This document shows positions 7,006-54,320 of a stretch of DNA of 64,000 nt, piece by piece. The notes under the pieces were generated by a model. That model ran no database searches and was not told the DNA's origin. It was given only the letters and a program-made list of their open reading frames with translations. The DNA is taken from positions 8,988 to 72,987 of the IMG/VR virus record IMGVR_UViG_3300035696_003004, one strand, 5' to 3'. A program made the translations under genes and the position numbers. Numbering within the stretch: position 1 is the stretch's first letter; each line of letters begins with the position of its first letter. The DNA is from a virus (lineage: Duplodnaviria; Caudoviricetes).

Positions 7006-8199
7006 ATGCGTAATACGACGATGCGTGATAAATTGTCTGCCGTGCTGGGGGGCTCGATTCCGGTACCCATGACAGGAGCTAAAGCGCGGCGACTGGTGTC
7101 CGCGGAATTGGCAACAAAACACCATAAAAAGCGCCCTTACATGGCTGATCGAAGGCCAGTTGAGTTTAATATTGAGGCTAGAGCTGAACCTGAGACTCAA
7201 GCTCTTCGCTACATAATACCGCCCAAAAAAAGAAAGCCTTTTGCGGTTCATGTATATCCAATTTCCCCTGTTCAACCAGAAATTCAGACACTAGATGAAC
7301 CGCTTGTTGAGGAAACGCCTCCTGTTGAGGTGGTGAAAGAGCCACCAAAGATGGAAGAAGAAGTCTCGCGGCAGTTCGTTGCCGCTTGGCATCGCGCGGA
7401 GCCAATAGCGGTTGTTGCGCCGGTGCCGGTATCCAAGCCGGAGTTAGCGCCTGAAACGCAAGTTGTTGTCAAGGAAGAACTTAACCTGAATCAGCAAAAC
7501 GCAATCGAGTCGCAAATTGCGTTGGAGCCGCAACCTTTAATTTCTTCTTCAAGTGAGACAGAGGTCATTTCAGCATCTGTTGTCCCTGATGAACAAGCTC
7601 CTACGAAACCGCCTCAAGTTGCTGGCTCATTACCGCCAAATTTAAATTGGTTAGAAAAGCAAACGCCATTTGCGCCAGATCTCAAGGGGATAGTGGATCG
7701 GGTACGTGACGCAAAGACGCGAATTGCTTTTACAATGGAGCAATTGCGGCATCGGGAAGAGGAAATCAAAAAACAATGTGAGAAGGCGCGCGCCGATTTG
7801 GATAGCGTTCAATTCCAGATAGAGCAACAGCGCGACTATACCCGTCAATTGGATGACATGATCGCTGCTTGTGCGATTGTTGCCAAACAAAGTGCGGCGA
7901 TAGACCCCGGTTTGTTTTCGCGCATGGTGACTAAGCAAATGAATAAAATCCATACGGTGACTACTCATACAGCCCGTTGGTCTGGCGATCCGTCATTTTG
8001 TCACCGTAAGGATGTTTTGGCGCTCTTGAAGACAAGTCCAAACGAAGAATGGAATGCTGACAAAGTGCGCAAGGGATTGCCAGCGATTATGCAGACTCAT
8101 GCACACAAAGTTGTGCCAGGGATTCTAGCTAATCTTACGAATGAAGGCATTCTGCAACGAGTTAGTGTTGGTTTCTACTGTCTGGCTAAGACAAACTAG
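7006..8199 (+). CDS. Hypothetical protein (Pro/Glu-rich linker, coiled coil, C-terminal wHTH-like)
   Basis: 397-aa ORF ending GILQRVSVGFY, similar to the wing end of the 6472 ORF. Confidence 0.65.
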   Translation: MRNTTMRDKLSAVLGGSIPVPMTGAKARRLVSAELATKHHKKRPYMADRRPVEFNIEARAEPETQALRYIIPPKKRKPFAVHVYPISPVQPEIQTLDEPLVEETPPVEVVKEPPKMEEEVSRQFVAAWHRAEPIAVVAPVPVSKPELAPETQVVVKEELNLNQQNAIESQIALEPQPLISSSSETEVISASVVPDEQAPTKPPQVAGSLPPNLNWLEKQTPFAPDLKGIVDRVRDAKTRIAFTMEQLRHREEEIKKQCEKARADLDSVQFQIEQQRDYTRQLDDMIAACAIVAKQSAAIDPGLFSRMVTKQMNKIHTVTTHTARWSGDPSFCHRKDVLALLKTSPNEEWNADKVRKGLPAIMQTHAHKVVPGILANLTNEGILQRVSVGFYCLAKTN

Positions 8200-20385: not shown

Positions 20386-20639
20386 ATTGATTATAGCGCG
20401 GTTTTGGGCAGGAAAAAGCCAGCCCGGGGCGAAGTGGGCTGGCTCATTAGGTGGTGAAGCAAGCAGATTTAAGTGTAGCAAGGGCGGTGTCTCTCAACCA
20501 AGAAAGTATGACCCAATGACCCCAAGAGGTCGGCCGCCCTTGCATGAAGATCATTATAGTCGAGAATGATTGTTTATAACCAAAAATATTAATTTTCTGC
20601 TGTGAGGTAGCTTGTTGTTCATTATGATACGGTTTATCT

Positions 20640-20654
20640 GTCCAGATTCTGGAC
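20640..20654. promoter_or_regulatory. 15-bp palindrome, copy 4, between a putative -10 and the SD of the 20665 ORF
   Basis: GTCCAGATTCTGGAC directly followed by TGGAGG SD. Confidence 0.6.
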
Positions 20655-20664
20655 TGGAGGACGT

Positions 20665-21111
20665 GTGGGCAAAAAGTTATGTACAGCGAGTAGAAAGCAG
20701 GTTCCGGCGATTGTTGCGGAGGTGCTGGCGGCTTTAAGTTTGTCTGATGAAAAGGAGATTGTGTCGGAGATCCAGCGTCTGCAAGAGTGTGCGCTCGAAC
20801 TGATCGAATTGAAGCGATCCTTTTTTCGTATTGCGCAGATGTTCCTCGTGGAACATAAAGGGCTTCACCCTTTGAAGCTTACGGCTGAAGAAAGCTACCA
20901 GATAAATCGGATCATTACGGATGCGGATATGATGGTTGAGGAACTACAGTTTGAAAATTACCGGTTGCGGAAGGAACTAAAAAATCTTATTGGCAAGGCG
21001 CAAAATAAGAGGCAAAATGTCAAGAAGCAGGTGCATCATGGCAACAAAAGCGGAAAAAGAAAAACAAGCACTTCACAAAGAGTGCAGGGCCCGACGAAGC
21101 GAATGGATTGA
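20665..21111 (+). CDS. Hypothetical coiled-coil protein
   Basis: GGAGG SD and GTG start; 148 aa. Confidence 0.65.
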   Translation: MGKKLCTASRKQVPAIVAEVLAALSLSDEKEIVSEIQRLQECALELIELKRSFFRIAQMFLVEHKGLHPLKLTAEESYQINRIITDADMMVEELQFENYRLRKELKNLIGKAQNKRQNVKKQVHHGNKSGKRKTSTSQRVQGPTKRMD

Positions 21112-21280
21112 ATTTCGGAGAAAGTATTTGTTTACGCAGAAGCGGCTGGCGGAAGTTTTAGGGATCAGCCGGCGAACGGTACAGATGATCGAAGGTGAGC
21201 GGGTTGAAAGGCCGCATCCGGACACGCTGCGGGCATTCCTTACGCTCAAGATCAAGCACGAGCGCGGCGAAACGATGTAG
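21038..21280 (+). CDS. XRE-family HTH protein
   Basis: TQKRLAEVLGISRRTVQMIEGE; its TAG stop is part of the first array repeat. Confidence 0.85.
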   Translation: MATKAEKEKQALHKECRARRSEWIEFRRKYLFTQKRLAEVLGISRRTVQMIEGERVERPHPDTLRAFLTLKIKHERGETM

Positions 21281-21941
21281 CGCTTGGCAGTGCATCGGAC
21301 AGATGCAACCGCTGCGTCGAAGGTCCGAGTATGCAACAACCAAATGGCAATGGTTTTGTAGTGCATTGAGCTAATGCAACTCCGATGTATTGGAACTTAC
21401 AAACGACAACGTGGAGTAGCAACAAATTTGCAGTGCATTGAAAAATGCAACGGTATTTTCCACGACGAAAGCTTTGTAGTGCATCGAATGGATGCAACAG
21501 ATAGGGGATATCCGCGTATACTTTTCCCGACACGTATCAAGTAATTTGTAGTGTATCGGATGAATGCAACCTAATACTGTATCTACTCCGGCTCAAGCTA
21601 AGGCGCGTATCAAGTAATTTGTAGTGCATCGGATGGATGCAACGTCAAACGTACAATTGTCAAAACGTTAATTTGATCGGCACAACAAAGTCGCAGTGCA
21701 TTGAATAGATGCAACCCCCACATCGCTGCGTTTGTAGGATTGGAAATACGTGGCAACAAACAAGCTGTGCATCGGGCAGATGTAACACCGGCCAATCCGC
21801 AAGCAGTGTGCTGCAAAGCACAACGACATGGCCTCTACGCTAGTGAGTTCACTGAATAAGTGAAACAACTCAAGGTGAATGCAGAGCGTTGGACAAACGC
21901 AACGGCTTCGAGAAATCGGGAGTGCATCAAACAAATGCAAC
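21277..21941 (+). CRISPR. Degenerate CRISPR-like array: 8 divergent ~37-nt repeats (mostly 34-36-nt spacers, one shortened unit), then 4 tandem ~38-nt hairpin units
   Basis: Repeats end at 21309, 21380, 21451, 21498, 21570, 21643, 21715 and 21786 (GTAGTGCATCGNNNGATGCAAC core). Later hairpin-AAC units end at 21824, 21866, 21903 and 21941. Same family as the reverse complement of the 53894 array. Confidence 0.8.
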
Positions 21942-22042
21942 AATTGCACTGGATGCATAAATAGGGCATTACACAAATTCATTTTTGTGCTAGTGATATA
22001 GTAAGTGTGCAAAAATGCACCAACTTAGAAAGGCGGTTTTCT

Positions 22043-22456
22043 ATGCCTGAAGACGAAGGCTATACGGAAGGTTTAACGGGAGAAGAGATCATTTTGGACG
22101 TTCTCGATCAACTAGACAAGAAACTTCACACTGATTGCAATTTGCGTGAAACGGATGCCTATCCCGGCGGCTACGATGGTTGGATTGAATACTTTTTACG
22201 CCCACGCGGCTTGGATACGGTCGAAGTTCGATCAAAAATTATTGTCGGCTCACCCGCGCTTTCCGGCCAAGTGAAAAAGGTTGTGGAAGGTCGTATTGAC
22301 ATTCCACTTGAAACAAGTCTAAATGTCGTTCGTGAACGGAGTAGCCAAGGCGTTCCTACGTTATCTAAAGATGAAAACGGTCAGCCCATTGTCGTAAAGC
22401 GCCAATATCGACGTCGTAACGTAGAAACAACCGCAGTACCAGAAGAAACAAAATAG
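22043..22456 (+). CDS. Hypothetical protein (start of late operon)
   Basis: AAGG SD; TGATATAGT extended -10 near 21993. Confidence 0.65.
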   Translation: MPEDEGYTEGLTGEEIILDVLDQLDKKLHTDCNLRETDAYPGGYDGWIEYFLRPRGLDTVEVRSKIIVGSPALSGQVKKVVEGRIDIPLETSLNVVRERSSQGVPTLSKDENGQPIVVKRQYRRRNVETTAVPEETK

Positions 22457-22831: not shown

Positions 22832-23393
22832 AGACGTTGCCAAAGCTCCACAAATAACTCCCCTGTTAAGACAAGCCGAAGGTGGTCTCGATGCCGTCCT
22901 AAGCGCTATGCGCTTTGCCCCCCAAAACGAGGCAATCAACGCTTTTCTCAAAAAATATGATTCCATCCCGCCTAGCGATCGTGAACGATTGCCTTGGGAA
23001 GCAATCGCTCTATCCGCCGCAATTGATATCAATCAGCTCCTCGGTTCCATTATGTTTGCGATCCAGTCCCAAACCGCCAATACCGTAAAACTGATCGCAA
23101 TGACTTCTCAGCCATTAGTAACTCGTGCCCGAGTTCGCTATGCTCAGTTGCCTAGTGGCGACCGTGATCGCACGGCACTCGATACAGCCTATGGCTTCCT
23201 GCCATCTCCTAAAGGTCCAACTTTTATCGGTAAAGCCGTCTTCGGCGCACAATCCGCCAAAAACGATAACGACGATGCAATTGATGCACAAGAAACCTTC
23301 GGCGAAGATGACGACCTGGACGATCTTTTCCCCTCCTGCGCGGCTATGCAGGAAAGACTATTGCCCATTCGGCAACGGCAGCTTCCGTCATGA
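22755..23393 (+). CDS. Possible terminase small subunit
   Basis: Position upstream of TerL, helical body, acidic C-terminus. Start uncertain (track gives 22554). Confidence 0.4.
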   Translation: MPVPQKLKIQTKRTTGALKRLKVQPEDVAKAPQITPLLRQAEGGLDAVLSAMRFAPQNEAINAFLKKYDSIPPSDRERLPWEAIALSAAIDINQLLGSIMFAIQSQTANTVKLIAMTSQPLVTRARVRYAQLPSGDRDRTALDTAYGFLPSPKGPTFIGKAVFGAQSAKNDNDDAIDAQETFGEDDDLDDLFPSCAAMQERLLPIRQRQLPS

Positions 23394-23812
23394 AAATTGT
23401 TTTTCTGGACTTTGATGGACCAATTATCCCGCAAATGTCCCACGATGATAATCATCCTATGGATGCATGGCCTTCCTGCATTGCCGCTTTAAACCGAATT
23501 ACTGATACAACAGATGCCAAAATCGTTGTTAGCAGTACTTGGCGGGCAGGCGGATTGTCCGAAATGCGTAATTTGCTATCCAAATGGGGCGCAAACGCCG
23601 AAGTGATTGGTCTTACCCCCGTTCTCTTAAACGAAACTCGCGGTAAAGAAATTGCCGAATACTTGAAAGCGCATCCAGAAACCGAATCCTTTGTTATTCT
23701 GGATGATGACGATGACATGGATGAATCGCTGCCGTTTTTGGTTATAACTCCGTTTGCAACCGGCTTAACAGAAAAACATGCTGACCGGGCGATTAAGATA
23801 TTGAACGGCTAA
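23390..23812 (+). CDS. HAD-superfamily (Swiss Army Knife RNA-repair-like) protein
   Basis: VFLDFDGPI, IVVSSTWR, RGKEI, FVILDDDDDM. Confidence 0.88.
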   Translation: MKIVFLDFDGPIIPQMSHDDNHPMDAWPSCIAALNRITDTTDAKIVVSSTWRAGGLSEMRNLLSKWGANAEVIGLTPVLLNETRGKEIAEYLKAHPETESFVILDDDDDMDESLPFLVITPFATGLTEKHADRAIKILNG

Positions 23813-52948: not shown

Positions 52949-53887
52949 ATGGTCCTTATGCAACCAAGCGCTAAAATACTTGCTGCGTTCGAAAGATGTC
53001 CTCGCATGGCTTTTTGGATGCGTTCTTGGCAGCAATACAAAATGGATGACATTCAAATGCTTCAAGCGGGTATACGAATTGGTGTTATGGAAATGGAGCG
53101 TAAGGATTGGGGACAGGTTGCTGGTGAACAAGTTTATGCGCTCGGCCTCGAACCTGGTTTAGAAACAAATTACTTTAATGTGCATGACCAAGTTGTTCAT
53201 TTGGCTTCGATTGCCGACATTGTAACAACGGCTATACGAAAACAACAAGAAAAACCTTGGGGTATACCGCCACCAGTGCTATTGGGAAAGCAAGGGTTGC
53301 AATGGAATTCTTCTGCTTATATTGATCCGTCTGGTTCGCATTTGCGAAGGATTGTTTTAGTATCGAATTGGTCCGATGAACGGCATTACAGCGAAGCGCG
53401 ATCCTATTTTTCGTTAGGTGAAGTTTGTGCATATGGTTTGCCAATGCAGCAGGTAGTTATTGTGCTGGGTCAGAACCGAAGTGGAAAGCGACATTCGGCA
53501 TGGACAAAGGGATTTCGGCACCCACGAAATAAGAAACTGCGTTTTCGCAAAAAAAATGATGTCACTGTGCCATTTAATTCAAATTGGGATAAAGTATGGC
53601 GAGAGGATTTTAGCGATATTTCTACGCACGATTGGTTACAAGCAATGTTGGATGATGGCGTTCTTCAAGATCATTGCTTTACGGTTCAAATTGATGTGCC
53701 GATCCAGATTACTCGAAAACATATACTTGATTTAATGATGCGTAAGCTTGAAGCAATTGAAAAATTAAATACACTACCCGATGAACAAATGACCGGCTGT
53801 GACTGGCCTTATAAATGCCAATTTCGTAAGCCGTGTCATTCTGGCGGCGAGCCGAAAGAGGGGGTATTTAGAGTGATTGCGCAATAG
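52949..53887 (+). CDS. Cas4/PD-(D/E)XK-like protein with predicted Fe-S Cys staple
   Basis: N-terminal SAKILAAFERCPR and C-terminal C-x5-C-x5-C (CDWPYKCQFRKPC), the 1+3 Cys arrangement of Cas4/AddB-type nucleases; catalytic D..ExK not evident. Confidence 0.65.
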   Translation: MVLMQPSAKILAAFERCPRMAFWMRSWQQYKMDDIQMLQAGIRIGVMEMERKDWGQVAGEQVYALGLEPGLETNYFNVHDQVVHLASIADIVTTAIRKQQEKPWGIPPPVLLGKQGLQWNSSAYIDPSGSHLRRIVLVSNWSDERHYSEARSYFSLGEVCAYGLPMQQVVIVLGQNRSGKRHSAWTKGFRHPRNKKLRFRKKNDVTVPFNSNWDKVWREDFSDISTHDWLQAMLDDGVLQDHCFTVQIDVPIQITRKHILDLMMRKLEAIEKLNTLPDEQMTGCDWPYKCQFRKPCHSGGEPKEGVFRVIAQ

Positions 53888-53893
53888 TGCGTT

Positions 53894-54144
53894 GTTGCAT
53901 CTATTCGATGCATTACAAAACCGTTGCTACTCGAGCTGGTGGCTTGGATCTAGCCAAACCACATAGTTGCATCTGTTCGATGCACTACAAAACCGTTGCT
54001 ACGGAACAACTGCGACTTGAAAACGAGGCGTTTCTAATTGCATCTGTTCGATGCACTACAAACCGTTGCTACATACTCTTCCGCACGACCAAATCGTAAA
54101 TGGCCAAGTTGCATCTGTTCGATGCACTACAAAACCGTTGCTAC
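53894..54144 (-). CRISPR. CRISPR mini-array: 4 repeats (37/37/36/37 nt), 3 spacers (35/34/35 nt)
   Basis: Plus-strand repeat GTTGCATCTGTTCGATGCACTACAAAACCGTTGCTAC at 53894, 53966, 54037 and 54108. The most degenerate copy is leftmost and an AT-rich flank is on the right, implying minus-strand transcription (GTAGCAACGGTTTTGTAGTGCATCGAACAGATGCAAC). Confidence 0.92.
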
Positions 54145-54320
54145 AACACAATTATAACTATTTTGTTTTGAATGGCCACAAGCTGCTTTCCGCGAACCGC
54201 GTAAATTTGTGCTTTTCAATTGTAACGAGCGGCACAATACTCATTCTATCTCTTTCAAAATCAGCATATTATCCCTTCCGCAAACTTTTTGAAGTTTTAC
54301 CGAAACTGAAGGTTCGCGCA

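Follow-up and report, generated by a model that had tools for sequence, protein, structure and literature searches.

What maintains a long and visibly worn CRISPR array in a phage genome? The question is raised by a 64,000-nt stretch of viral DNA (hereafter the window), which corresponds to bases 8988-72987 of the IMG/VR provirus record IMGVR_UViG_3300035696_003004, a record of 72,987 bases with an estimated completeness of 54%. Here, a degenerate array of at least ten units (array 1; 21273-21941, plus strand) lies between the stop codon of a helix-turn-helix (HTH) gene and the packaging genes. The phage is a member of a clade of peat-soil phages with genomes of ~130 kb, and the hosts of this clade are probably Acidobacteriaceae. 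We regard array 1, with a probability of roughly two in three, as a guide array, remote and non-acquiring, that belongs to a phage-borne type V system with a Cas12m-like effector. Most likely, it has been worn down to the handle of the CRISPR RNA (crRNA), the handle is held by selection, and the array is no mimic of a host CRISPR.

The units of array 1 belong to the same repeat family as a short canonical array on the opposite strand of the window (array 2). A covariance model trained on 148 members of the family and scanned over the window matched ten units of array 1 and four repeats of array 2, and no further or lone units elsewhere in the 64 kb. A 20-nt hairpin pattern had eight matches in the window versus none in 100 shuffles. 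The initial annotation of this DNA described eight units of the array-2 family, each different. All eight are recognized by the model (E ≤0.003), and all differ in sequence. Their periods are 71, 71, 47, 72, 73, 72 and 71 nt, leaving unique spacers of 34, 34, 10, 35, 36, 35 and 34 nt, most of them within the 34-36 nt first noted. Between unit 2 and the array-2 repeat, 7 of 37 positions differ, in agreement with the 30/37 matches originally counted, and the remnant of the first repeat, which starts at 21277, indeed overlaps the TAG stop codon of the HTH gene (21278-21280). The span first proposed, 21038-21786, contains the array, but 21038 is the start codon of the HTH gene; the array proper occupies 21273-21941 and is followed by a terminal unit at ~22007-22024. 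Past unit 8 the array becomes compact, with handles 17, 17, 16 and 17 nt apart. One of the units in this part, unit 8b, scores under the threshold of the covariance model.

The part of the 37-nt repeat that is kept is its last 21 nt, consisting of A-G, a 6-bp stem, a 5-nt loop and A-C. When nine in-register units are compared with the array-2 repeat, substitutions per site amount to 0.48 in the 5' 16 nt and 0.36 in the loop, falling to 0.09 in the stem with its flanks (Fisher p = 1e-13). Six of the 12 stem substitutions make up three compensatory double changes, three are G-U wobbles on the plus strand, and three are mismatches. A common fold register (two free bases, six pairs, loop, six pairs, two free bases) was obtained for 12 of the 14 units tested, 13 of which are from array 1 and one from array 2. 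These data agree with the drifting 5' halves, persisting 3' hairpin, compensatory swaps and G-U pairs seen in the initial annotation. The repeats are not near-identical within the array, as 48% of sites in the 5' 16 nt depart from the canonical repeat. Judging by these sequences, the units of the window are selected for RNA structure and are not in neutral decay. The selection of the units for structure, proposed initially, stands: the substitution spectrum of neutral decay is borne out neither by the difference between 0.09 and 0.48 nor by the covariation in ~1000 units of related phages.

Relatives of the array were found with a two-unit pattern, which matched 47 loci on viral contigs and, on metagenome contigs, at least 120 (fetched loci are denoted by L numbers, genomes by G numbers). 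The loci come mostly from peat and bog samples, and several of the contigs are 120-130 kb long. On the fetched related contigs there are 233 arrays of at least three units, forming a continuum from arrays of identical repeats to arrays in which the 5' halves are 20-50% alike and the 3' 21 nt ~90% alike. A logo of 987 unique units shows 85-100% conservation at positions -21 to -14 and -8 to -1; positions -21 to -19 were unused for unit detection, yet they are conserved. No more than background conservation is seen at positions -28 and -22 or in the spacers. Covariation was counted in 1026 units with anchors that place no constraint on the inner stem. The three inner stem pairs are intact in 98-99% of these units, and double changes are far commoner than single ones (pair -15:-7, TA 843, CG 150, TG 15, CA 7; pair -14:-8, CG 879, TA 96, TG 25, CA 14; pair -16:-6, AT 951, GC 38, GT 22, AC 4). 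Double-change cells number 75, versus 19.7 +/- 3.4 in shuffles, none of 500 of which reaches the observed value. Such compensatory stem changes across ~1000 distinct units indicate that an RNA hairpin is under selection. Intermediates of the G-U type outnumber those of the A-C type on the given strand (62 versus 25), an excess consistent with an RNA transcribed in the same direction as the HTH gene. In closely related arrays, the proportion of variable sites rises from the scaffold (2.6%) through guide positions 1-17 (4.7%) and the distal spacer (7.0%) to the 5' half (8.9%), which is the order that functional crRNAs predict. The initial annotation had named absence from related phages beforehand as an argument against its reading; instead, the arrays abound there and show conserved synteny.

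Which protein would read these handles is suggested by the same loci. Clustering of their large open reading frames (ORFs) revealed a protein of 679-770 aa in 11 array loci. It carries the Pfam Cas12f1-like TNB domain and is matched by the Cas12u1 model of PADLOC (E = 7e-23), with Cas12f scoring equally. Sequence matches in the PDB are to the C-termini of Cas12m, TnpB and Cas12f, and the match to the profile of UnCas12m4a (E = 9e-12) is likewise confined to the C-terminus. The AlphaFold model of the protein has a predicted local distance difference test (pLDDT) score of 86; among PDB structures, the four top matches to it are those of Cas12m2 and GoCas12m (E = 4e-19 to 8e-16), with Cas12m ahead of Cas12f and TnpB. 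By predicted fold the effector is closest to Cas12m, and its assignment to a type V-M-like class is tentative. Cas-lambda was considered as the effector and rejected, having no sequence match and a fold rank below Cas12m, Cas12f and TnpB; it uses the entire 36-nt repeat, with a terminal stem (PMC12141684). The effector family comprises at least 111 clusters at 90% identity, some of them annotated from metagenome-assembled genomes (MAGs) of Terracidiphilus.

Arrays of this repeat family lie directly downstream of the effector gene and in the same orientation in all loci checked (L048, L116, L037, L128, L167 and L016/L084). In one peat phage on a 130-kb contig (L016/L084), the genes cas12-cas4-cas1-cas2 are followed by an array of identical repeats (L016:8332-12906). 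Remote arrays in the same genome (L135) are degenerate, with a 5'-half identity of 0.49-0.67. Other relatives carry the effector and arrays without adaptation genes within the fetched loci. On contig Ga0255348_1000020, a homologue of the HTH gene of the window (L070) and the effector gene (L116) are ~45 kb apart. A separate observation concerns the 5' side of the effector gene, where the end of a handle unit, or of the final unit in an upstream array, is 0-43 nt from the start codon (L116:3147-3183 and L037:12427-12463, both minus strand); possibly, this is an autoregulatory handle in the effector leader. The association with cas genes also bears on whether the repeats act as DNA, for instance as binding sites of the HTH protein or of the small terminase (pac-type) or as replication iterons. 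Their position directly upstream of packaging genes and downstream of the gene for a DNA-binding protein would suit such a role. However, the same units form canonical arrays beside cas genes elsewhere, the covariation keeps pairing and not sequence, and G-U type intermediates are favoured on one strand. We consider the chance that the repeats serve at the DNA level close to negligible.

The initial annotation further proposed that a Cas protein of the host is exploited, and suggested a search for a host CRISPR with this repeat. This part of it is not supported, the repeat family being that of the Cas12m-like effector of related phages. A host-type array with the window repeat was not found in 185,579 species representatives (20-mer scan) or in 401 Acidobacteriaceae genomes (searched with the array DNA), and protein searches of three MAGs found no host effector. 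The sole matches in the host searches are phage-like array fragments and lone units. The 20-mer scan gave five single matches, about the number expected by chance, three of them in Acidobacteriaceae; the match in a Terracidiphilus MAG (L015) is an 8-unit degenerate array. Lone perfect 21-nt handles occur in Acidobacteriaceae genomes and MAGs (L012 at ~7465-7501, L014 at ~2940-2976 and G051:C1:1310670-1310690), with no neighbour units within the fetched loci. These could be solitary units or prophage remnants. Nothing stated here depends on four genomes marked as unpublished (G271, G176, G250 and G005).

Under the reading as a remote guide array, array 1 would be transcribed by read-through from the operon of a 148-aa ORF and the HTH gene, and the effector would bind every 21-nt handle. 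Cleavage of the transcript upstream of the handle may then remove the distal spacer together with the worn 5' half of the repeat that follows, so that a crRNA of the 21-nt handle plus a guide of ~17-20 nt would result. The 5' half of the repeat would be needed only for spacer integration by Cas1-Cas2, so that it decays in arrays without acquisition while the handle is kept. By analogy with Cas12m, fixed guides might send the effector to DNA beside a TTN-type protospacer adjacent motif (PAM), where it would bind and block transcription, or possibly cut. The effector could come from the missing half of the phage genome or from a co-resident relative.

Targets of the guides provide little more than a lead. 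The initial annotation suggested matching the spacers to host and phage DNA, and this gave one anchored host match, with none in the window, related phages or INPHARED. Guide 7, taken as the initial 20 nt of the spacer that follows unit 7, matches 20/20, from spacer position 1 and with a 5' TTG flank, a site in an Acidobacteriaceae genome (G069:C13:109268; L189:1501-1520). The chance expectation of this match is ~0.04, or ~0.002 if a TTN PAM is required; such a PAM has been reported for Cas12m (PMC11013384). The site falls within the gene of a 494-aa DUF2971 protein with a match to PDC-S31, a candidate defence family of PADLOC. Guide 8, the 17 nt that follow unit 8, recurs with 16/17 identity in the equivalent position of another phage's array (L177). 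In viral contigs, this shared 17-mer has four matches, about the chance level, one of them with a TTC flank, and the guide-7 19-mer has none. The window itself has no site with two or fewer mismatches to the first 17 nt of any array-1 guide, its guides match nothing in ~1.3 Mb of related phage loci, and BLAST of positions 20600-22100 against INPHARED phages found no match. When ~1800 spacers of the family were compared with the same ~1.3 Mb, the matches were almost solely array-to-array; the flank of one phage-to-phage match (L165 to L179) is not TTN. With the 24-unit L010 array, no anchored protospacer was obtained in the 401 Acidobacteriaceae genomes, the recurrent matches being to repeats or to the distal part of one GC-rich spacer. 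In two further contigs, the guides after the units ending at 8039 (L127) and 2206 (L118) are reverse-complementary to each other over 23/24 nt, which suggests that one sequence is targeted on both strands by different phages.

The guides also bear on the proposal that the units are RNA decoys, handle mimics that would protect the phage by titrating a Cas12m-like effector, whether this comes from the host, a resident prophage or a rival phage. Handles without a cognate effector gene in the record, the adjacent HTH gene, as in acr-aca loci, and related phages of the same habitat that carry the effector and could be rivals are all in keeping with decoys. Yet spacers kept at 34-36 or exactly 16-17 nt would be superfluous in a decoy, one 17-nt guide is common to the L177 array, degenerate arrays also occur in effector-encoding genomes (L135 with L084; L070 with L116), and the genomes searched hold no host-encoded system with the window repeat. 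We therefore judge decoys quite improbable. The regular spacers, the guide shared with L177 and the presence of a canonical mini-array with a leader favour guides over mimics of the anti-CRISPR kind.

Several results weigh against a functional guide array. The handles of the window are more worn than those of its relatives, with a 3'-part identity of 0.71 versus ~0.9. Unit 5 hardly folds, the terminal unit is truncated, the loop-closing pair is a C.A mismatch in units 5 and 10, and the outermost pair of unit 9 is an A.A mismatch. Partial loss of function in the phage of the window is thus possible. The difference in conservation between guide positions 1-17 and the distal spacer in closely related arrays is not significant (p = 0.18). 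No Cas12-like gene, TNB domain or Cas1 was found in the 73-kb record, which is 54% complete; the records of the five closer relatives searched for the effector are fragments of 10-33% completeness, and therefore uninformative. The RuvC residues of the effector are mostly D/E-E-D, so that a Cas12m-style binding-only mode is an assumption. Finally, convincing targets were not found in the window, related phage loci, INPHARED or the 401 Acidobacteriaceae genomes. The guide-7 match is the single anchored one among these genomes, the rest being mostly at chance level, and its site is not kept in the one homologue found.

Some of these points would be expected of a relic, an array whose effector was lost or never present and whose hairpins survive because too little time has passed. 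The absence of an effector from the record and the more degraded handles agree with this view. True neutral decay does happen in the repeat family: a MAG contig (L186; G161:C117) carries a decayed copy of window unit 8 and its 17-nt guide (16/17) in which the hairpin is unpaired. By contrast, a five-fold lower density of substitutions in the stem and flanks than in the adjacent 16 nt is impossible without selection. Compensatory doubles account for half of the stem changes and G-U wobbles for a quarter, and the leader-bearing canonical mini-array of this genome implies access to an effector. A relic is thus unlikely.

The genes around array 1 (Table 1) are shared with relatives. The 148-aa ORF that opens the putative operon belongs to no Pfam or PHROG family. 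Homologues of the HTH protein are found in 14 related loci, with 54-63% identity. The block 3' of the array encodes proteins of 137 and 279 aa, a HAD_SAK_2 protein and the large terminase (TerL). The entire order, 148-aa ORF, HTH, array, 137 aa, 279 aa, HAD_SAK_2 and TerL, recurs in two lineages (the L041 group and L165), the proteins of which are 54-71% identical to those of the window. Their arrays have 11 and 16 perfect handles, and spacers cannot be aligned between the syntenic lineages. The array tail, too, keeps its layout across lineages, in which a 7-nt-loop hairpin is followed by a unit, then by a -10-like motif and finally by one more unit ahead of the 137-aa gene. At the -10-like motif, the promoter scan made no call. 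In one locus (L067), the HTH gene is followed directly by the 137-aa gene and the array is absent, indicating that the array is an insertion at this junction and that the HTH gene is not dedicated to it. No terminator-like site was found in a scan between the HTH stop codon and unit 1. Given this and the 0-nt gap, the array is probably transcribed from the HTH operon. Control of the array by the HTH protein, as suggested initially, is putative, its basis being co-orientation, the 0-nt gap, the lack of a terminator-like site and the conserved gene order.

The tail admits another explanation, namely that the handles are embedded in messenger RNA and the effector binds or cuts its own phage's transcripts, for example to separate the early transcript of the HTH gene from the late one of the packaging genes, or to regulate how the 137-aa gene is translated, so that the apparent spacers are no guides. 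The L041 and L165 tails, where the last, complete unit sits between the -10-like motif and the start of the 137-aa gene, speak for this, as do the units that directly precede the effector gene of L116 and L037. However, the 64-kb window has no lone units elsewhere, and ten tandem units exceed the need for a processing site. We find this explanation very improbable.

Table 1. Features of the window and the basis on which they were assigned
Feature	Position	Strand	Basis
148-aa ORF, first gene of putative operon	20665-21111	+	tblastn homologues 37-39% identical, equivalent position in relatives
80-aa XRE-type HTH gene	21038-21280	+	Pfam HTH_3, E = 2e-5, above cut-off
Array 1 (main degenerate array), units 1-8	21273-21786	+	covariance model, E = 2e-8 to 0.003; folds
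Units 1-4, 37-nt register	21273-21309, 21344-21380, 21416-21451, 21462-21498	+	covariance model
Units 5-8, 37-nt register	21534-21570, 21607-21643, 21679-21715, 21750-21786	+	covariance model
Guide 7, first 20 nt of spacer after unit 7	21716-21735	+	20/20 host match
Guide 8, 17 nt after unit 8	21787-21803	+	16/17 in equivalent position of another phage's array (L177)
Unit 8b, handle with rewritten stem (A-G, 6-bp stem, 4-nt loop, A-C)	21805-21824	+	fold -8.1 kcal/mol, shared register
Hairpin, 7-nt loop	21847-21866	+	fold -5.8 kcal/mol; orthologous tails in L041, L165
Unit 9	21867-21903	+	covariance model, E = 0.033; two compensatory stem pairs
Unit 10	21905-21941	+	covariance model, E = 3e-6
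Tail inter-unit guides, 17/17/16/17 nt	21787-21803, 21825-21841, 21867-21882, 21904-21920	+	spacing
Extended -10-like motif	21994-22002	+	kept in orthologues; aligned by eye with L041, L165 tails
Truncated terminal unit	~22007-22024	+	directly before ribosome-binding site of next gene (22043); aligned by eye
137-aa gene, 3' of array	22043-22456	+	homologues 53-66% identical, order kept in relatives
140-aa HAD domain gene	23390-23812	+	Pfam HAD_SAK_2, E = 6e-27
312-aa gene	52949-53887	+	homologues in 14 loci, 54-66% identical
Array 2 (canonical mini-array), four 37-nt repeats, three spacers, last repeat diverged	53894-54144	-	covariance model, E = 5e-9 to 0.002
Leader of array 2	54145-54320	-	non-coding stretch between 232-aa gene and repeat 1

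A few features of the neighbourhood deserve mention in their own right. The loop of the tail hairpin at 21847-21866 is identical in the three lineages (window, L041 and L165), and the stems are wholly different yet paired; in the orthologues the hairpin has no terminal A-A-C, so that there is no crRNA handle there. The HAD domain is of the 'Swiss Army Knife' RNA-repair type, and its gene keeps the position between array and terminase in relatives. In the closest relatives (L106:5153-9301, L035 and L018), the terminase matches the 715-aa protein of the window in three pieces over ~4 kb, which suggests inteins, introns or inserted genes that the window copy is without. Convergent with array 2 is a 312-aa gene, the most recurrent array neighbour in the clade. 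Its product has no Pfam match; a protein atlas groups it with viral PD-(D/E)XK / RecB / Cas4-like nucleases (score 0.95), which we regard as a lead only.

In normal arrays, repeats are kept identical by spacer acquisition. Because they are identical, the part of the repeat that the effector needs cannot be read from the sequence alone. Hundreds of arrays that are non-acquiring yet selected change this, since evolution itself marks the 21 nt of the functional handle and, where the units are compact, a useful length of 16-17 nt for the guide. If phage genomes hold guides that are fixed and long-lived, a non-adaptive use of a Cas12m-like binder would be indicated, for instance in silencing genes of hosts or rivals or in self-regulation. 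Tentatively, and with considerable doubt, one may picture array 1 as an innate, hard-wired guide set, co-transcribed with the early HTH gene, whose fixed 17-20-nt guides silence host genes (such as the DUF2971 / PDC-S31-like putative defence gene) or genes of rival phages, and whose last unit ties the effector to the packaging mRNA. This would be a programmable repressor regulon and not adaptive immunity, with repeats stripped to the minimal handle. For the window, an anti-CRISPR interpretation is replaced by one of guides directed against the host or other phages. The arrays also constitute a resource of non-repetitive natural array designs, together with a large family of compact (~750 aa) putative effectors. 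In the literature searched, we found no description of long phage arrays that keep only the Cas12m handle, and a full-text search for the repeat sequence returned unrelated primers only.

Among known systems, RNA anti-CRISPRs (Racrs), reportedly described by Camara-Wilpert et al. in 2023, are said to be solitary or few units that mimic a host system and have no maintained spacers (see also PMC11656645). As in Racrs, the diverged repeat units of the window keep a Cas-binding hairpin and adjoin an HTH gene. Unlike Racrs, they form ten tandem units with 34-36- or 16-17-nt spacers, and no mimicry of a host system was found in the genomes searched. CRISPR-associated transposons (V-K, I-F3) have atypical repeats that flank fixed homing guides and still load the effector. 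The likeness to array 1 lies in diverged repeats around fixed, not newly acquired guides; however, the transposons carry one guide per element with a known chromosomal target, and no long phage array.

CreR/CreA and mini-arrays of crRNA-like RNA (crlRNA) are found inside cas loci, have one or two units and target a cas promoter or a toxin (Shmakov et al. 2023, bioRxiv 10.1101/2023.03.03.530964). They share with array 1 degenerate repeats of retained function and guides that bind by partial complementarity, whereas array 1 is far from cas genes and has no partial self-target within the window. The mini-arrays of viruses carry an exact host repeat and one or two spacers, mostly targeting related viruses (Medvedeva et al. 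2019; reviewed in PMC11656645). The arrays of the window resemble them in being cas-less in a viral genome, in their unique spacers and, for array 2, in the leader. They differ in that the repeat is of the phage-effector family, in the number (at least ten) and degeneracy of the units, and in that no related-virus targets were found.

The nearest parallel is type V-M (formerly V-U1; Cas12m2, PDB 8HHL/8HIO; GoCas12m, 8PM4), with which the effector of the relatives shares its closest solved fold and the Cas12u1 match. V-M systems occur on plasmids and in some prophages (PMC11656645). The differences are substantial. The effector has 690-770 aa versus ~600 aa in Cas12m, is ~14% identical to it and has mostly D/E-E-D in RuvC. 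The loop of the repeat family is 5 nt long, without the upstream stem described for Cas12m2. Furthermore, the arrays of the peat phages are many per genome, scattered and composed of repeats that keep the handle only, and the window record is without an effector gene. The similarities lie in the RNA. As in type V-M, the guide RNA would be a crRNA only, with the handle at the 3' end of the repeat. In the Cas12m2 crRNA, the 5' end is disordered, a G.A pair is formed with A(-2), and six pairs use positions -8 to -3 (PMC10442227). By sequence and predicted pairing only, the 21 nt of the window share the G.A pair, the helix of -8 to -3 and C(-1). In Cas12m2, C(-1) is recognized, the heteroduplex measures 17 bp, and a guide of ~17 nt is effective (PMC10442227); the compact units of the window leave a guide of 16-17 nt.

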